From positions 1 through 55,623 of the forward strand of contig JALXBF010000106.1 of assembly GCA_026991575.1 (NCBI GenBank): a DNA stretch of 55,623 bases. Reading direction: 5' to 3'. The translations under genes were made by a program, and so were the position numbers. Every line of letters begins with the position of its first letter. Position 1 is the stretch's first letter. Source of the stretch: Planctomycetota bacterium. Its GTDB lineage: Bacteria; Planctomycetota; Planctomycetia; JALXBF01. Positions 3,460-10,127 of this stretch are shown here, piece by piece. The notes under the pieces are model-generated. The model searched no databases. It saw nothing but the letters and a program-made list of their open reading frames with translations, and was not told the DNA's origin.

Positions 3460-3621
3460 ACAGCGCTGCGGCGACCGCTCGCGCACTGTCGGGGACCTCG
3501 GCCGTCTCAGGCACGGTGCCGCCTCCGACCTGCGCTCGCGGGCGTATACTGCGGCAGACACCACCGACACCGCGGAGCGATGCGTGCCACACGGGCAAAC
3601 TGTTGTTGTCAAGGAGCCGTC

Positions 3622-4821
3622 ATGAGCAAGCGTGTCTCTCTTGCCTTCGTCTCTTTGACGTTCGTAGTGGCGGTACTCGCATCGGCACTCGTTGCCGGGC
3701 GGCGCGATGGGGCGGAACCGATGGTGGCGGATCCAGCATTGCTGGCCAAGGCACGGCGCATCCTGGACGATGCGATTCTCATCGATGGCCACAACGACTT
3801 GCCCTGGACCATCCGCGAGCACACCAACGGTGATTTCGACCGCTACGACATCCGCAAACGGCTGCGTTTCGGCCACACCGATATCCCCCGACTGCGGGAC
3901 GGTCGCGTGAAGGCCCAGTTCTGGAGTGTGTTCGTACCGGTGCGCTATGCTGAGCAGGGAACGGCCGTCCGCACGACGCTAGAACAGATCGATCTTGTCT
4001 ACCGGATGATCCGCCGTTATTCGGACACGTTTGAGTTGGCCCGCTCGGCAGCCGACGTGCGCCGTATTGCTGCTGCAGGCAAGATCGCCTCGCTGATCGG
4101 CGTCGAAGGCGGTCATTCGATCGACAACTCGCTCGGCGTGCTTCGCATGTACTACGAGCTCGGCGCACGCTACATGACGCTTACCCACAGCAAGAACACC
4201 GACTGGGCCGACTCGTGCACGGACAAACCAGAGCACGGGGGTCTGACCGAATTCGGCGTTCAAGTCGTCCACGAAATGAATCGCCTCGGCATGCTGGTCG
4301 ACATCTCGCACGTTTCCCACGACACGATGCGTCACGTACTCCGTGTGACCAAAGCCCCCGTAATCGCCTCGCACTCCTCCGCCTACGGCGTGGCCCCGTT
4401 TGCCCGCAACGTGCCCGACGACGTGCTGCGGATGATCCGCGACAACGGCGGTGTTGTCATGGTAAACTTCTTCCCGTTCTTCGTGCACCCAGAAGCTGCA
4501 CGGACGCTGGCCCAGGGGAAACGCCCGGATCCAGTGCCGCAGACCACCATCGAGCACGTGCTTGACCACATCGACCACATTGTCCGCGTTGCTGGTATCG
4601 AGCACGTGGGGTTGGGTTCCGACTACGATGGCATCCCATACACCCCACAGGGGCTTGAAGATGTCTCCACGTTCCCGAACCTAGTCGCCGGCCTCTTGCG
4701 CCGTGGCTATGACGAGCGGGCCATCAAGCTGATCGTCGGCGGCAACGTCCTGCGAGTGCTCGAAGAGGCTGAACGCATCGCTACGAAGCTGCAGGCCGGG
4801 GAAACGACCGTCGCCCCGTAG
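3622..4821 (+). CDS. Membrane dipeptidase (peptidase M19, renal dipeptidase family), exported
   Basis: IDGHNDLP, GVEGGH, YMTLTH, VDISHVS, IASHSS and GLGSDYDG motifs. AAGGAG RBS precedes ATG 3622; signal peptide/anchor present. Confidence 0.92.
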   Translation: MSKRVSLAFVSLTFVVAVLASALVAGRRDGAEPMVADPALLAKARRILDDAILIDGHNDLPWTIREHTNGDFDRYDIRKRLRFGHTDIPRLRDGRVKAQFWSVFVPVRYAEQGTAVRTTLEQIDLVYRMIRRYSDTFELARSAADVRRIAAAGKIASLIGVEGGHSIDNSLGVLRMYYELGARYMTLTHSKNTDWADSCTDKPEHGGLTEFGVQVVHEMNRLGMLVDISHVSHDTMRHVLRVTKAPVIASHSSAYGVAPFARNVPDDVLRMIRDNGGVVMVNFFPFFVHPEAARTLAQGKRPDPVPQTTIEHVLDHIDHIVRVAGIEHVGLGSDYDGIPYTPQGLEDVSTFPNLVAGLLRRGYDERAIKLIVGGNVLRVLEEAERIATKLQAGETTVAP

Positions 4822-4963: not shown

Positions 4964-6217
4964 TCAGTCCTCGTCGTACAACAGCACGCTGGCCCGCCGC
5001 GGCAGGAACGCACGAAGCTCTTGCTGACAGTGCGCCATGATCTGCTCGAACGGAGCTGCCTCTTCAATCAGGCGATACACGCGCGTATCGGCCAGCAAGC
5101 GAATGTAACGGCGATGGTCCCACTTTTCAGGGTGGGTCAACCGCAGTGCGTGAGCGATGGCCAGTCCGGTCCGCACCGGCTCGAACTCGGTGCGGTCCGT
5201 TACGATCACTTCCAGGCCGTAGCACAGCTCTCCGGCAAACTTGCTGGCCGACGGCCGAAAGCTCACTGGCACAAACACCACGCCACGCAAGCCGTACCGT
5301 TGCAGCGCCCGCCAGAGCGCGAAATGATCCAGCCACGGAGCCCCGAAACGCTCAAACGGCGTATCCGTTCCCCGGCCGACGCTGAGGTTTGTGGTTTCCA
5401 GCAGGCCAATCCCTGGGTACAGCAACGCCTGACGGAGCGAGCGCATGTTCGGTGACGGGTTCACCCATGGCTGGCCGGTACCGTCCAGGTACATCGTTCG
5501 ACGCCAGCCCTCCATGCGGACGACCGCGAGCCGGACGTTGGGAAAACGCTCGCGGCGATATAGCCGGGCGATCTCACCAACGGTCATGCCGTGACGCACC
5601 GGAAGCGTGTGAAACCCGACGAAGCTTTCCATGCCGTGATCCAGCACGGGCCCGGCCACTGCCGTTCCCCCAATGGGATTGGGACGGTCCAGCACGAGGA
5701 ACTGGACACCGGCCTCTTGGGCAGCTTCCATGCAGAGACCAAGCGTGGAAATGTACGTGTAGAAACGGCAACCGATGTCCTGGATGTCGAAGACCAACAC
5801 GTCCACGTTCCGAAGCTGCTCGTGCGTCGGTTTGCGGCGTTTGCCGTAGAGGCTGTAGATGGGCACCCCCGTTCGCTCGTCCCGGCTGTCCGCCACTGCC
5901 CCCTCGGCAACGGCCCGGAAGCCGTGTTCCGGCGTAAAGATTGCCACCAGGTCGACTTCCGGATGTTGATGCAGCAAATCGACCAGGTGTTGACCTTCGG
6001 GGGTGATAGCCGTGCGGTTGGTGATCACAGCCACTCGCTTTCCGTGCAGCGGTCGGAAGTCTCGATCTCTTAGGACCTCCAAGCCGCTTCTGACCGGCAG
6101 ACCCGCTGCCCGCCTGGTCATCAGGATAGGTGCAAGGGATACCGGTTCCGCAGCCTGTGTCGCTACAGCAGCGCACAGCACGGTGGCGAACGCGAGGCAG
6201 TTCAGGCGGTGCTTCAT
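4964..6217 (-). CDS. namZ: Exo-beta-N-acetylmuramidase NamZ (DUF1343/YbbC), secreted
   Basis: FTPEHGF, YSLYG, FDIQDIGCRFYTY, LDRPNPIGG, RHGMTVGE and SPNM motifs; Sec signal peptide (ATQA-A). Confidence 0.9.
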   Translation of the reverse strand: MKHRLNCLAFATVLCAAVATQAAEPVSLAPILMTRRAAGLPVRSGLEVLRDRDFRPLHGKRVAVITNRTAITPEGQHLVDLLHQHPEVDLVAIFTPEHGFRAVAEGAVADSRDERTGVPIYSLYGKRRKPTHEQLRNVDVLVFDIQDIGCRFYTYISTLGLCMEAAQEAGVQFLVLDRPNPIGGTAVAGPVLDHGMESFVGFHTLPVRHGMTVGEIARLYRRERFPNVRLAVVRMEGWRRTMYLDGTGQPWVNPSPNMRSLRQALLYPGIGLLETTNLSVGRGTDTPFERFGAPWLDHFALWRALQRYGLRGVVFVPVSFRPSASKFAGELCYGLEVIVTDRTEFEPVRTGLAIAHALRLTHPEKWDHRRYIRLLADTRVYRLIEEAAPFEQIMAHCQQELRAFLPRRASVLLYDED

Positions 6218-7632
6218 TAGAGCAATCTCCGAAACACGAGCCCGCCCAGTCCCGTTGCGACGACCCCAATGAGGCTAAGCCACGGGAAGGCAACATCGCT
6301 AAGCCCCCAGGCAGCGAGGGCCGCGCCAAGTCCGACGCAGAATGCTACGGCTGCGGCTCGGGTGGAGACGCCCTCCATCAGCGTCAGCGCGAGCAGGCCG
6401 AGAACGACACCGGTTGTCAGCGAGGCCACCGTGAGAATCGGTCCGATGACCGGGCTGTCCCGGTCCAGCCAGTGGATGGCAGCCAGCGCCACGGCTCCCT
6501 GAGCCACCCCGGCAGCGACCGTTGCCAGCCGCGACCACCACAGGCCTTGGCTGCCACCGCGCTCGTGATCGAGCTGACGGGCCATCAAGTCGCCGACGAC
6601 GGTGGAAGCGATCGAGTTAACGGAGCTGGACAGGGTGCTCATGGCTGCCGCCAGCGCTGCTGCGACCACGATGCCGCGGGCCCCAAGCGGCATCGCCTCC
6701 AGAATGAACGTCACGAACACCTCATCCGCCCGCGCCGCGGTGTAGTCCGTGCGGTAGCGGTACCACAGTCCGACGCCGATGAGCAGGAACAGGGCAAACT
6801 GCACGAAAACCAGCACACCGCTGGCCACGAGCACGAGGCGGGCGCGGGTGAGCGAGCCGGTGCACAGATAGCGCTGCACCATGAGCTGGTCGGCGCCATG
6901 GGTGGCTGCGGATAGGAACGCCCCCCCGATGACGCCTGACCAGAAAGTGTACGTCTCGGTCAGGGACAGGCTGAAATCGAAGACGCGCAACTTTCCCGCC
7001 GCTTGCGCCTCGTACCACAGGCTCTGCCAGCCCCCGGCCCCGCCGACCAGTAACACCAGTGCCAGCACCGCGCCAAGGATGTAGACCACCAGCTGGATCG
7101 AGTCGGTCCAGAGCACCGCGCGGATTCCGCCCGCGAATGCATAGGCGACGGTCACGACGGCAACGACCAGCACGGCCCAGTCCAGCGACACTCGCAGCAT
7201 CGCACCGACCAGGATAGCGGTCAGGTACAGCCGTAGGCCATCGGCCACGGTGCGGGTACCCACGAACAGCAACGAAGTCAGCCGCTGCACGGAGCTGCCG
7301 AAGGCGGCTTGCAGGCGTTGGTACAGCGTCAGGTAGGGGCGATCGAACAGGGCCGGAAGCAACCACAGTGCGATGGCTACGCGACCCACGATATAGCCCA
7401 GTGGCAGCTGTAGGAAGCGCAGGTCAAACCGGAACCCGTGTGCCGGCACACTCAGGAACGTCACCGCACTGGTTTCCGTGGCCACGATCGAAAGCAAGGC
7501 CAGCCCGGCCGAGACCTGACGCCCGCCCAGAAAATAGTCCTCAACGCCGCGAGAACGGCCGCTGAGCGATAGGCCGGCAGCCAGCGTTACGATCAAGAAC
7601 AGAACCAACACGACCCAGTCGACGACGGTCAT
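6217..7632 (-). CDS. Sodium:solute symporter (SSS family), probable amino-sugar/MurNAc importer
   Basis: YFLGGR, SIVATETSAVTFLSVP, GGIRAVLWTD, HGADQLMVQRYL and AAAMSTLSSSVNS motifs; about 13 hydrophobic segments; 1-nt overlap with namZ. Confidence 0.9.
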   Translation of the reverse strand: MTVVDWVVLVLFLIVTLAAGLSLSGRSRGVEDYFLGGRQVSAGLALLSIVATETSAVTFLSVPAHGFRFDLRFLQLPLGYIVGRVAIALWLLPALFDRPYLTLYQRLQAAFGSSVQRLTSLLFVGTRTVADGLRLYLTAILVGAMLRVSLDWAVLVVAVVTVAYAFAGGIRAVLWTDSIQLVVYILGAVLALVLLVGGAGGWQSLWYEAQAAGKLRVFDFSLSLTETYTFWSGVIGGAFLSAATHGADQLMVQRYLCTGSLTRARLVLVASGVLVFVQFALFLLIGVGLWYRYRTDYTAARADEVFVTFILEAMPLGARGIVVAAALAAAMSTLSSSVNSIASTVVGDLMARQLDHERGGSQGLWWSRLATVAAGVAQGAVALAAIHWLDRDSPVIGPILTVASLTTGVVLGLLALTLMEGVSTRAAAVAFCVGLGAALAAWGLSDVAFPWLSLIGVVATGLGGLVFRRLL

Positions 7633-7669
7633 TCGGCTACTCCGCTAGACCAGCGCGGCGTCGCCGGGG

Positions 7670-9646
7670 TCAGGCTCGTAACAGACGGGCGGCCAGCGTA
7701 ACGGCGCCGTGGGCTGCCTGACTGACCACGTGGACTGTCTCCGGCTCGACCACCCCTGCGAGCCGATCCAGCAGCCGCTGGCGCAGCGCTCGGCTCGCAG
7801 TCAGTAGCCCACCTGCCAGCAGTACCGGTCCACGCCACGGCGTGTTCTGGGCACGGCTGTCCGCAACTGCCTGCCTGACCTGGTCGGCCAACAGCGCGCT
7901 GGCTTCGTCCAGCATGGCCAGCGCCGCAGTGATCCCTTCCTCAGCCGCTGCCACAGCCGGCTTGGCCAGTTGAGCGATCCTGCGCACGGTATCTTCATCG
8001 GCGCGGGGGGTATACAGGAACGCTCGCACCAGCTGGGCGACATCGTGCCCGTCGTGGCTGGCTGCTAGCGGCCCAGCGGTACGAAGGAACGCAACCACGG
8101 CCTCATCGAGCGGGTCGAGCGGTTGGCCGCTATCCAGTCGCCGGCAGAGCCGCTGCAGGACTCGCCGGCCGAGCCAGTATCCGCTACCGGGATCGCCCAC
8201 CAGCCAGCCCCAGCCGCCGGCCCTGGCAACCGGTCGCCCACCGTCACGAACCTGAACCACTGTGCCGGTCCCCGCGATCACGGCAAGGCCTCGGTCCAGG
8301 CCTGCCGCGGCGTACACAGCGTCGATGTCGGTGTAGACCTGAATGCGATGGGCCAGTCGCAGCGAACGGAGCCAGTCTTGCCATTGCAGGGCGGTTTGCG
8401 ATCCTGCAGCGCCGGCGAGGCAGGCGGCCAGGCTCTCGACGGTCGCGTCCCGCTGGCGCGCCGCGCGGAGGGCCTGAAACACGGCTCGTGCCACGTGCTT
8501 GGCGGCGCGGGCAAAGCCGTAGACGTTGGCGTTTGCGCCCGGTTGCTCCGCTTCCGCCAACACTCGCCATGCGCCGGCCGCATCGACTGCGGCCACAACC
8601 GCGCGCGTTGCCGTGCCGCCGCCATCGATGCCCACAACGAGTCGCTCACCGGGGCGGAGCACGAGCCGGCCTGCCGGCTCCTCCTCCCCCAATGCCACCC
8701 GAACGTGTCCGCGCGCCTGCCGCAGCAGTGCACGTGCCTGTTCCGGCGAACAGCCCCGCTTGCCCACGACCAGCGCCGTCTTAACCTCCCAGCCGCAGCG
8801 ATCCAGCAGCGCCCGGGCCTGGTCGCGCGAAATGCCCAGCAGCTGGCTGACAATGCGGCAGGCGCGCAAGTGAAGTTTCGTGTTCGTGGCCTTCAGGTCA
8901 ACCATCAGGTTGCCGTAGGTCTTGCCGATCTGCACCATGGCACCGGTGGTGATCATGTTCAGCACCAGCTTCGTGGCGGTGCCGGCCTTCAACCTCGTCG
9001 AGCCACTCAGCACCTCCGGGCCCACCACCGGCGCAATCGCAATGTCGCACTCGTCTAGCACGAGGGCATCTCGGTTGCAGGCCAGAGCAATCGTCGTGCA
9101 CCCTCGTCCGCGAGCGTATCGCAAGGCAGCAAGCACGTAGGGCGTTCGTCCGCTGGTTGCGATGCCGCACACGACATCGCGCTCGGTGAGGTTCAGCTGT
9201 TCGAGATCCGCCACCGCTAGCTCAGCCCGGTCCTCGGCCCCTTCCACCGCACGGACCAGCGCGCGTGAGCCGCCGGCGATCACGCCAACGACCATCTCCG
9301 GGGGAGTGCCGAAGGTCGGGGGACACTCCGCGGCGTCCAGGACGCCGAGTCTGCCGGATGTTCCTGCCCCCACGTAGATCAGTCGGCCTCCGGAGCGAAA
9401 CGCCTGCGCCACCACCTCAATGGCCCGCGCAATCGGAACAGCCTGGCTGAGCACCGCCTCCGGGACACGGTGGTCCTCCTCGTTCATCAAGTAGACGATC
9501 TCCAGGGGGGTCAGCCGGTCGATGTCGCGCGAGGCGGGGTTTTGGGCCTCGGTCGTCAGCCCGTCGAGCTGGAAGATTCGCTGGTCAGCCGAATCGGAAC
9601 ACATGGAACCGTCGGAACTCTGATGCTGCAATCGCCGGTTGTGCAC
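7670..9646 (-). CDS. murQ: N-acetylmuramic acid 6-phosphate etherase MurQ fused to a BadF/BadG/BcrA/BcrD-type sugar kinase (MurK/GlcNAc-kinase-like)
   Basis: N-terminal half has TE..N, GAGTSGRLGVLDAAECPPTFG, GAED, GPEVLSGSTRLKAGTATK and GNLMVD. C-terminal half has VGIDGGGT, IAGTGT and AGGWGWLVGDPGSGYWLG. Start may be ATG 9604. Confidence 0.9.
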   Translation of the reverse strand: MHNRRLQHQSSDGSMCSDSADQRIFQLDGLTTEAQNPASRDIDRLTPLEIVYLMNEEDHRVPEAVLSQAVPIARAIEVVAQAFRSGGRLIYVGAGTSGRLGVLDAAECPPTFGTPPEMVVGVIAGGSRALVRAVEGAEDRAELAVADLEQLNLTERDVVCGIATSGRTPYVLAALRYARGRGCTTIALACNRDALVLDECDIAIAPVVGPEVLSGSTRLKAGTATKLVLNMITTGAMVQIGKTYGNLMVDLKATNTKLHLRACRIVSQLLGISRDQARALLDRCGWEVKTALVVGKRGCSPEQARALLRQARGHVRVALGEEEPAGRLVLRPGERLVVGIDGGGTATRAVVAAVDAAGAWRVLAEAEQPGANANVYGFARAAKHVARAVFQALRAARQRDATVESLAACLAGAAGSQTALQWQDWLRSLRLAHRIQVYTDIDAVYAAAGLDRGLAVIAGTGTVVQVRDGGRPVARAGGWGWLVGDPGSGYWLGRRVLQRLCRRLDSGQPLDPLDEAVVAFLRTAGPLAASHDGHDVAQLVRAFLYTPRADEDTVRRIAQLAKPAVAAAEEGITAALAMLDEASALLADQVRQAVADSRAQNTPWRGPVLLAGGLLTASRALRQRLLDRLAGVVEPETVHVVSQAAHGAVTLAARLLRA

Positions 9647-9657
9647 CGCTGGCGGCG

Positions 9658-9912
9658 CTAAGGGTACCTGGCCGCCCCCTCACGCACGCAGGGCAGTTCC
9701 TCGGGCGAGTTGATCCCGTCGGGCAGTTCAGCCTCTTCAATCAGCAGATTTGGGATGCCGTCGATGATACGGAAGACCGGGCCACAGCGGGTACAGATCA
9801 GCTTGTCTCCTTCCAGTTTCAGTTCCGCCTTGCCAAGGGGACAGACGAGGATATCCAGCAGATCCTTCGGAATCGGCAGATCCTGCGGTTCTTTCCGGGT
9901 TTCTTCCGCCAC
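9658..9912 (-). CDS. Trm112 family protein
   Basis: LLDILVCPLGK..L...GDKLIC..C...F.I.DGIP.LL.EEA motif; GTG at 9912 has a GGAG RBS. Confidence 0.85.
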   Translation of the reverse strand: MAEETRKEPQDLPIPKDLLDILVCPLGKAELKLEGDKLICTRCGPVFRIIDGIPNLLIEEAELPDGINSPEELPCVREGAARYP

Positions 9913-10127
9913 AGCGTTCTCCAACGATACCGATGGCCAATGTAGCATGCCAGCGGGCACTCTCACATTATTATGGAGTAGGCAAAGTCCTCTGCAACGG
10001 CACGAGCTAGTCGCCCTGGCCGGCAGCTGCCGGGGTGGGCATCATCAAGAGGGTTGCTCCAGCCTGCCGCAGTGCTGCTGCGTTTTCGGGCCGAGTGGGC
10101 ATGAGGCACGCGTAGGGCAAGAAGCTC

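Follow-up and report, generated by a model that had tools for sequence, protein, structure and literature searches.

How a planctomycete may recover N-acetylmuramic acid (MurNAc) without a phosphotransferase system (PTS) is the question raised by three adjacent genes in a 55,623-nucleotide stretch of DNA from a Planctomycetota bacterium (contig JALXBF010000106.1 of assembly GCA_026991575.1). This whole stretch, here called the window, is contig C106 of genome G000 (4.96 Mb, 191 contigs, 97.8 % complete). The genes encode a fusion of the MurNAc-6-phosphate (MurNAc-6P) etherase MurQ with a sugar kinase, a transporter of the SSS family and a homologue of the exo-muramidase NamZ. Together they form a real and conserved operon that most likely serves PTS-independent MurNAc salvage (probability about 0.72).

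Planctomycetes were accepted as peptidoglycan-bearing only in 2015. A full-text literature search returned no description of a MurQ/NamZ system in Planctomycetes or of a MurQ-kinase fusion, and no account of planctomycete peptidoglycan turnover or feeding; the mentions of GH171 that were retrieved concern Myxococcota/Bdellovibrionota and trench sediments.

The gene cluster and its products

The three open reading frames (ORFs) lie tightly packed and co-oriented on the minus strand in the order murQ-kinase, SSS and namZ (Table 1). The 37-nt gap and the 1-nt overlap described in the original prediction were recovered exactly at the sequence level, the overlap being a TAATG junction in which the stop codon of the SSS gene and the start codon of namZ share one nucleotide. 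The murQ-kinase ORF extends over 7670..9646 and yields 658 amino acids (aa) from a GTG at 9646 (protein P0001); in the database gene call, P0004, the ATG at 9604 is taken as the start codon, which gives 644 aa. In a scan for promoters and terminators, the opposite strand gave a single promoter-like site and the SSS gene contained three terminator-like ones, which is no more than in shuffled sequences. From their arrangement, the three genes are probably co-transcribed.

The identities proposed for the three products hold, as their domain assignments clear the curated cut-offs. The MurQ domain scores 393 bits on the TIGR00274 equivalog model (cut-off 302), covering model positions 1-290 of 291, and a search of the whole genome with this model (396 bits) gave it as the sole full MurQ match. 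Residues E93, E121 and E124 of P0004 are invariant among 28 aligned fusion proteins (alignment A1). The catalytic glutamates of the MurQ SIS active site are presumably E83/E114 in E. coli numbering, and the MurQ half is predicted to act as an etherase on MurNAc-6P. The second half of the fusion belongs to PF01869 (BcrAD_BadFG; 99 bits, cut-off 31.5). The transporter matches PF00474 (SSF) with 87 bits (cut-off 22.8) and contains 11 hydrophobic segments in a simple scan; on the superfamily model TIGR00813 it reaches 167 bits, under the cut-off of 184. NamZ carries both domains of its family, NamZ_N (PF07075, 282 bits) and NamZ_C (PF20732, 151 bits). Its N-terminus has K/H/R residues, a single hydrophobic segment at 5-23 and then the sequence TQA/AE. 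By inspection and by a hydropathy script it reads as a Sec signal peptide, in agreement with the secretion that had been proposed.

Conservation of the cluster

Alignment A1 was used to retrieve 80 genome loci, 19 of which have murQ followed contiguously and on the same strand by the kinase. SSS and NamZ are both present at 12 of these 19 loci, SSS only at two (one of which ends at a contig edge), NamZ only at four and neither at one; at least SSS or NamZ is thus found alongside at 18/19. Taken singly, SSS occurs in 14 and NamZ in 16 of the 19, compared with 4 and 3 of the other 61 loci. The gene order varies: SSS and NamZ are divergent from murQ-kinase in loci labelled Pirellulales, the order is namZ-SSS-murQ/kinase in those labelled Gemmataceae, and murQ/kinase-SSS-namZ in the window. 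Conserved synteny, which the original prediction had named as its own test, is therefore present, with all four functions at 12/19 related loci. Since related genomes are not independent, the counts describe a pattern and not a statistic.

A search from the side of the transporter led to a similar picture. It was made by tblastn in a sample of 201 genomes of the window's phylum, with flanks of 1.5 kb. Among the best 12 non-self SSS loci (38-46 % identity), nine have MurQ and/or NamZ within 1.5 kb. Nine of the nearest relatives possess an SSS match, which is adjacent to MurQ and/or NamZ in five and directly downstream of AnmK in one.

MurQ and kinase are fused in 4/19 loci (L012, L015, L020, L022) and encoded by adjacent genes in 15/19; the isolate Aeoliella straminimaris and closed genomes from the same class are among those with split genes. 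In a MurQ tree the kinase-linked planctomycete sequences all cluster together (support 93/89), with fused and split forms intermingled, and a fused/split pair from Gemmataceae (L011/L012) are sisters (95/92). That murQ and the kinase are repeatedly fused or split as neighbours argues for consecutive steps. Among the database proteins listed (about 610-680 aa), 120/120 have both domains, and the only name given for such proteins by their sources, where there is one, is "N-acetylmuramic acid 6-phosphate etherase". The benefit of a fusion might be equal dosage or a hand-over of MurNAc-6P.

Three loci labelled as metagenome-assembled genomes of Nitrosopumilus (L009), Lysobacterales (L019) and Gammaproteobacteria (L077) carry a planctomycete-type cluster with a MurQ inside the planctomycete clade. 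Mis-binning or mislabelling is the likely cause, gene transfer a less likely one. Directly after the kinase gene, L019 (4616-5962) and L077 (9835-11121) have a gene for an MFS_1/BT1-type transporter; L019 is without SSS, and its MFS_1/BT1-type protein may be an alternative importer.

Completeness of the pathway

In the window's own genome a profile search gave no match for PTS_EIIC, AnmK or GH3, and tblastn with AnmK, with AmpG-like MFS proteins encoded at related loci, with a GH3 domain and with an APH-type kinase detected no homologue either. As PTS EIIC, AnmK and GH3 matches are missing, MurNAc-6P has no other visible source than the fused kinase. A MurA match of 442 bits means that the organism produces MurNAc itself and is not a MurNAc auxotroph. 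Furthermore, the genome contains two NagA-like genes (207 and 195 bits; equivalog cut-off 225.65) and two PF01182 genes, which could take N-acetylglucosamine-6-phosphate (GlcNAc-6P) onward.

Some of the remaining activities probably lie elsewhere in the genome. In relatives labelled Pirellulales, NamZ is fused to an N-terminal PF00144 beta-lactamase-fold domain of about 330 aa in 4/4 of the long NamZ ORFs scanned (Table 1). We take PF00144 to be the fold of Bacillus AmiE, and the fused domain is probably an AmiE-like MurNAc-L-Ala amidase. Its closest homologue in G000 (52 % identity) is a separate 389-aa gene (C171:9404-10573, L199:5905-7074), which adjoins phospholipid genes. An Amidase_2 gene is located on contig C126. 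The idea of a pathway complete in three genes is therefore to be narrowed. Its logic of cutting, import, phosphorylation and de-etherification is supported by the conserved synteny and by the absence of an alternative MurNAc-6P source in the searches above, but the likely amidases are on other contigs, and for GH3, GH20 and GH73 the genome gave no match.

Proposed mechanism

In the proposed route an exported, periplasmic NamZ would act on peptide-free fragments of peptidoglycan and free MurNAc at their non-reducing end. Free MurNAc, possibly also related forms, would be carried over the inner membrane by the SSS protein at the expense of an ion gradient. The fusion protein would then use its kinase half to phosphorylate MurNAc at C6 with ATP and its MurQ half to strip off the D-lactyl ether, giving GlcNAc-6P and D-lactate. 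Finally, GlcNAc-6P would pass to NagA/NagB-type enzymes encoded elsewhere or go back to wall synthesis. For every step we infer the substrate, as we do the direction of the flux (food or self-recycling). The locus offers a concrete route of four activities that is testable by Tannerella-type complementation and enzyme assays, and the natural MurQ-kinase fusion could serve as a one-protein converter of MurNAc to GlcNAc-6P. Since both the chemistry and the logic of the pathway had been established before, the advance is an incremental one.

Evidence against the proposed route and alternative explanations

Several observations weigh against MurNAc salvage as the function of the operon, and the first group concerns the genomic context. 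Three of the best 12 SSS loci (L097, L098, L107) lack a neighbour from the MurNAc pathway within 1.5 kb on either side, unrelated genes (GcpE, BNR-repeat protein) standing beside L097 and L098. The same applies to three of the nine nearest relatives, and a genome of the same family (G354) has an SSS-NamZ pair with no MurQ-kinase within 1.5 kb. A second phylum, which we take to be Bacteroidota in the GTDB nomenclature, was entered via a locus labelled Ignavibacteriaceae and covered with 151 genomes. An SSS match at E <= 1e-20 is present in 138 of them, and the flanks of the best 30 homologues (35-46 % identity) are free of MurQ and kinase and include NamZ at one locus only; the neighbours scanned are STAS, Ham1 and other unrelated proteins. 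Nevertheless, an accidental proximity of the three window genes, without a joint function, is scarcely credible. Such an accident would fit the absence of a promoter or terminator pattern above background, but the linkage recurs in varied orders and orientations in many genomes of two phyla, and the start and stop codons of two of the genes overlap.

A second group of points concerns the specificity of the kinase. According to alignment A1 it keeps the DGGGT motif, the catalytic Asp (D426) and the GTG(S/T) (here GTGT), GGWG..GD.GS and GG motifs. The closest solved chain is 2e2n (E 4e-21), a hexokinase with a broad substrate range. It is followed by 8zo3, titled a MurNAc/GlcNAc kinase (E 2.3e-16), and by the GlcNAc kinases 1zc6 and 2ch5 (E 2.7e-11 and 1.6e-10), whereas the match to Tannerella forsythia MurK (8ow7, E 2e-4; 8oqk) spans only about 80 residues. 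The NCBIfam model NagK_SO3507 gives a weak score of 65 bits (cut-off 370). The MurNAc specificity of MurK is ascribed, in PMC10465942, to the small residues S133-P134-L135 and to T94 preceding the catalytic Asp. The window kinase has T-D before the catalytic Asp, as T. forsythia MurK does, and its pocket is without a bulky Glu or His. The lactyl-pocket positions read GGW in the window kinase, in human NAGK and in 8zo3, as opposed to SPL in T. forsythia MurK. Given this GGW pocket, the sequence does not separate MurNAc from GlcNAc, although MurNAc fits. The original prediction of a BadF-family MurK can thus be kept as far as the family is concerned (PF01869 membership, ASKHA motifs), but the kinase is no close relative of the Tannerella enzyme (E 2e-4). 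The assignment as a putative MurNAc kinase comes from the fusion and the missing alternatives and not from the kinase sequence.

With such relatives the operon might mainly be an uptake route for GlcNAc, chitin-derived, or for another amino sugar, with SSS as a GlcNAc importer, the kinase as a NagK and MurQ and NamZ as a minor side entry. This is improbable. GlcNAc kinases and the dual 8zo3 are indeed among the nearest solved kinases, a weak NagK match exists and the pocket residues are compatible with GlcNAc. However, MurQ and NamZ, half of the four modules, belong to MurNAc-specific families, and the fusion ties the kinase to MurQ. In addition, the conserved company of SSS in both phyla consists of MurNAc enzymes throughout (NamZ, MurQ, AnmK and an AmgK-like kinase), and NagA and NagB are outside the cluster.

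A further peculiarity of the kinase is the GDEGS motif, which reads GDPGS in P0004 (P472), P0005 and P0007 and GDSGS in P0006, although the third position is E in 24/28 aligned fusion proteins. Of all relatives, P0005, P0006 and P0007 are the ones closest to P0004. The change from E to P or S could mean that the kinase half is catalytically weakened and has a regulatory or scaffolding role, with MurNAc-6P coming from an unrecognised source. This is very improbable. Neither the catalytic Asp nor any further ASKHA motif is altered, four proteins (49-74 % identical to one another's family) have preserved the variant, and the genome gave no PTS or AnmK match as another source.

The product of NamZ is the third point. 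Against PDB 4k05 the protein scores 263 bits (E 5.5e-77) and against 4jja 180 bits (E 7e-52), and each of the two solved homologues has the same residues as NamZ at the positions of E97 (PEHG) and R282 (GRGT). In BsNamZ, E92 is the putative catalytic Glu and R279 an Arg of the cleft (PMC8054146); E97 and R282 would correspond to these two residues. According to a preprint (10.1101/2021.12.02.470905), NamZ enzymes require peptide-free glycan ends, TfNamZ1 releases disaccharides, and BfNamZ1 (4K05) stands on the TfNamZ1 branch. As NamZ scores higher on 4K05 than on 4JJA, its product could be GlcNAc-MurNAc and not MurNAc. However, the same preprint states that BsNamZ frees MurNAc alone, yet is closest by identity to the NamZ1 branch; the product can thus not be predicted from the branch. 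Between MurNAc and GlcNAc-MurNAc the sequence of NamZ cannot decide. It also counts against the proposed route that no GH3, GH20 or GH73 N-acetylglucosaminidase is found in the 97.8 %-complete genome to expose MurNAc ends.

These findings bear on another explanation, in which SSS imports a disaccharide (GlcNAc-MurNAc or MurNAc-GlcNAc) or anhydro-MurNAc, NamZ is an exo-disaccharidase like TfNamZ1 and splitting occurs in the cytoplasm. It would account for the better match to the branch of a disaccharide-releasing enzyme (10.1101/2021.12.02.470905) and for the lack of a match to a periplasmic glucosaminidase family, and it agrees with an SSS orthologue (47 % identity) directly downstream of AnmK in G358. 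On the other hand, no match to cytoplasmic NagZ (GH3), GH20 or AnmK is present in the window's genome to process such imports, and the MurNAc-releasing BsNamZ is also nearest to the NamZ1 branch. SSS carriers, moreover, usually move small solutes. All in all this explanation is unlikely, and import of free MurNAc is preferred.

The AnmK-SSS pair just mentioned is located at L204 (G358:C240:23079-27470) in a relative of the same class, AnmK being directly upstream on the same strand. It hints that the carrier may also accept anhydro-MurNAc.

A second NamZ paralogue is encoded in the window's genome (C114:44991-46343, L006:9992-11344). This protein of 450 aa shares 39 % identity with the operon copy, and its gene stands by itself, flanked by an MMPL-like and a DUF6263 gene. 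The motif at the putative catalytic Glu, PEHG in the operon copy and in the two solved homologues, is PQHG in the paralogue.

The transporter and its partners in other lineages

Beside the SSS homologues without MurNAc-pathway neighbours, at least 27 of the 151 genomes of the second phylum (including L151) have NamZ directly upstream of SSS (33-40 % identity). In these 27 NamZ-SSS genomes no MurQ was found at E <= 1e-40. At L198 (G273:C1:1926000-1938000), the only NamZ-SSS locus examined, an APH-family kinase is encoded upstream. This is presumably the family of AmgK, and the arrangement points to an anabolic use of MurNAc, with an importer of the same type feeding the route.

The recurrence of SSS beside MurNAc enzymes in several contexts speaks for a MurNAc-type substrate, although the subfamily is not confined to this role. 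We tentatively suggest that the protein belongs to an uncharacterised, cross-phylum family of MurNAc-type importers which travels with NamZ and would feed whichever cytoplasmic route is present: MurQ and the kinase in the window, AnmK in a relative, and an AmgK-like kinase without MurQ in part of the second phylum. In the lineage of the window, periplasmic exo-lysis and this importer might then replace the AmpG/NagZ/AnmK paradigm, with MurNAc ends exposed by an enzyme outside the recognised glucosaminidase families, perhaps the second NamZ paralogue. An SSS subfamily that accompanies NamZ and MurNAc kinases in two phyla would be a useful metagenome marker for the scavenging of free MurNAc.

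Other arrangements were seen as well. L196 (G254:C24:300000-312000) and L197 (G350:C15:499000-511000) show the order SusD-NamZ-MurQ-SSS-GH3/beta-lactamase, resembling a polysaccharide utilisation cluster. Their SSS is distant (23 % identity to P0002), and the GH3/beta-lactamase fusion protein has 1018 aa. Six MurQ regions of the second phylum contained no murT-murK-murQ operon; one consists of a soluble GT4-like protein, a kinase and MurQ. A locus labelled Bacteroides uniformis belongs to a 2.4-Mb bin in which no useful SSS is present. In Vibrio sp. F13 (L031) and Microbulbifer agarilyticus (L051), murR is followed by SSS-BadF kinase-(anmK)-murQ, and the Microbulbifer locus has glycolate/D-lactate-oxidase-like genes, an HGSNAT-like gene and NamZ nearby.

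Neighbouring genes

Four neighbours were considered as parts of the system: the Trm112-like ORF, the M19 dipeptidase, SecA and a macro-domain gene. By tblastn none of them has homologues in 110 related loci, and they are therefore not counted. The Trm112p/YcaR-like ORF is probably outside the system.

Table 1 Features of the gene cluster, its neighbours and the NamZ fusions of related loci
Feature	Position	Strand	Basis
murQ-kinase fusion gene	7670..9604 (open frame to GTG 9646)	-	P0004, profile matches
MurQ (SIS-fold MurNAc-6P etherase) domain	8684..9568	-	TIGR00274, residues 30-319 of P0001
BadF/BcrAD-type (ASKHA) sugar kinase domain	7691..8635	-	PF01869, residues 338-652 of P0001
37-nt spacer	7633..7669	-	GGAG 7 nt upstream of SSS start codon
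SSS-family transporter, putative MurNAc importer, 471 aa (P0002)	6217..7632	-	PF00474, context
NamZ, GH171 exo-beta-N-acetylmuramidase homologue, 417 aa	4964..6217	-	PF07075 + PF20732
Predicted Sec signal peptide of NamZ, residues 1-22 (...ATQA/AEP)	6152..6217	-	inspection
Trm112p/YcaR-like small ORF, co-oriented, 53 nt upstream	9658..9966	-	PF03966, 34 bits
M19 membrane dipeptidase, convergent neighbour downstream	3580..4821	+	PF01244, 410 bits
NamZ fused to PF00144 domain	L008:3927-6293, L013:3686-6316, L018:5541-7868, L021:2677-5295		

Comparison with known systems

The best comparison is with T. forsythia, in which this pathway logic has been established by experiment and for which the reports describe ampG-namZ1-murT-murK-murQ as one transcription unit, MurK as a specific MurNAc 6-kinase and NamZ enzymes as suppliers of the substrates of the transporters (PMC5790795, PMC5388701, PMC7670621, 10.1101/2021.12.02.470905). 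MurT and MurK together rescue an E. coli murP mutant on MurNAc (PMC5790795, PMC5388701, PMC7670621). Both systems (for Tannerella: PMC5790795, PMC10465942, PMC7670621) encode together an exported GH171 muramidase, a non-PTS transporter of the inner membrane, a PF01869 kinase and MurQ, and in both NamZ stands beside the transporter gene. In contrast to Tannerella, MurQ and kinase of the window are one polypeptide, the kinase comes from another branch of PF01869, tblastn finds no ampG-like match in the genome, and the host is MurA-positive. The transporter class is distinct from MurP and AmpG, as had been claimed. Relative to Tannerella MurT a difference in class is doubtful: the introduction of PMC5790795 counts MurT among the sodium symporter superfamily, although the discussion of the same paper calls it an MFS protein.

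Among solved kinases, 8zo3 is the closest one annotated for MurNAc and has the GGWG...GD.GSG block in common with the window kinase. It differs in being a stand-alone protein, in having N-D instead of T-D before the catalytic Asp and in having GDEGS instead of GDPGS. We assume that 8zo3 is probably Clostridium acetobutylicum MurK (Reith et al. 2011).

The murQ-murR-murP-amiE-nagZ-namZ operon of B. subtilis (PMC8054146) likewise combines NamZ and MurQ and breaks down the wall exo-lytically outside the cytoplasm. However, Bacillus relies on the PTS protein MurP for both uptake and phosphorylation of MurNAc and has AmiE and NagZ in the operon (PMC8054146), whereas the window has SSS and a kinase instead of MurP, the AmiE-like gene of its genome is on another contig and NagZ has no match. 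Compared with the AmpG-NagZ-AnmK-MurQ recycling of E. coli, the genome has no homologue of AnmK, GH3 NagZ or AmpG-like MFS, but both routes end at MurQ. Overall, the operon appears to be a variation on the route known from T. forsythia and would, by analogy, work like that system.

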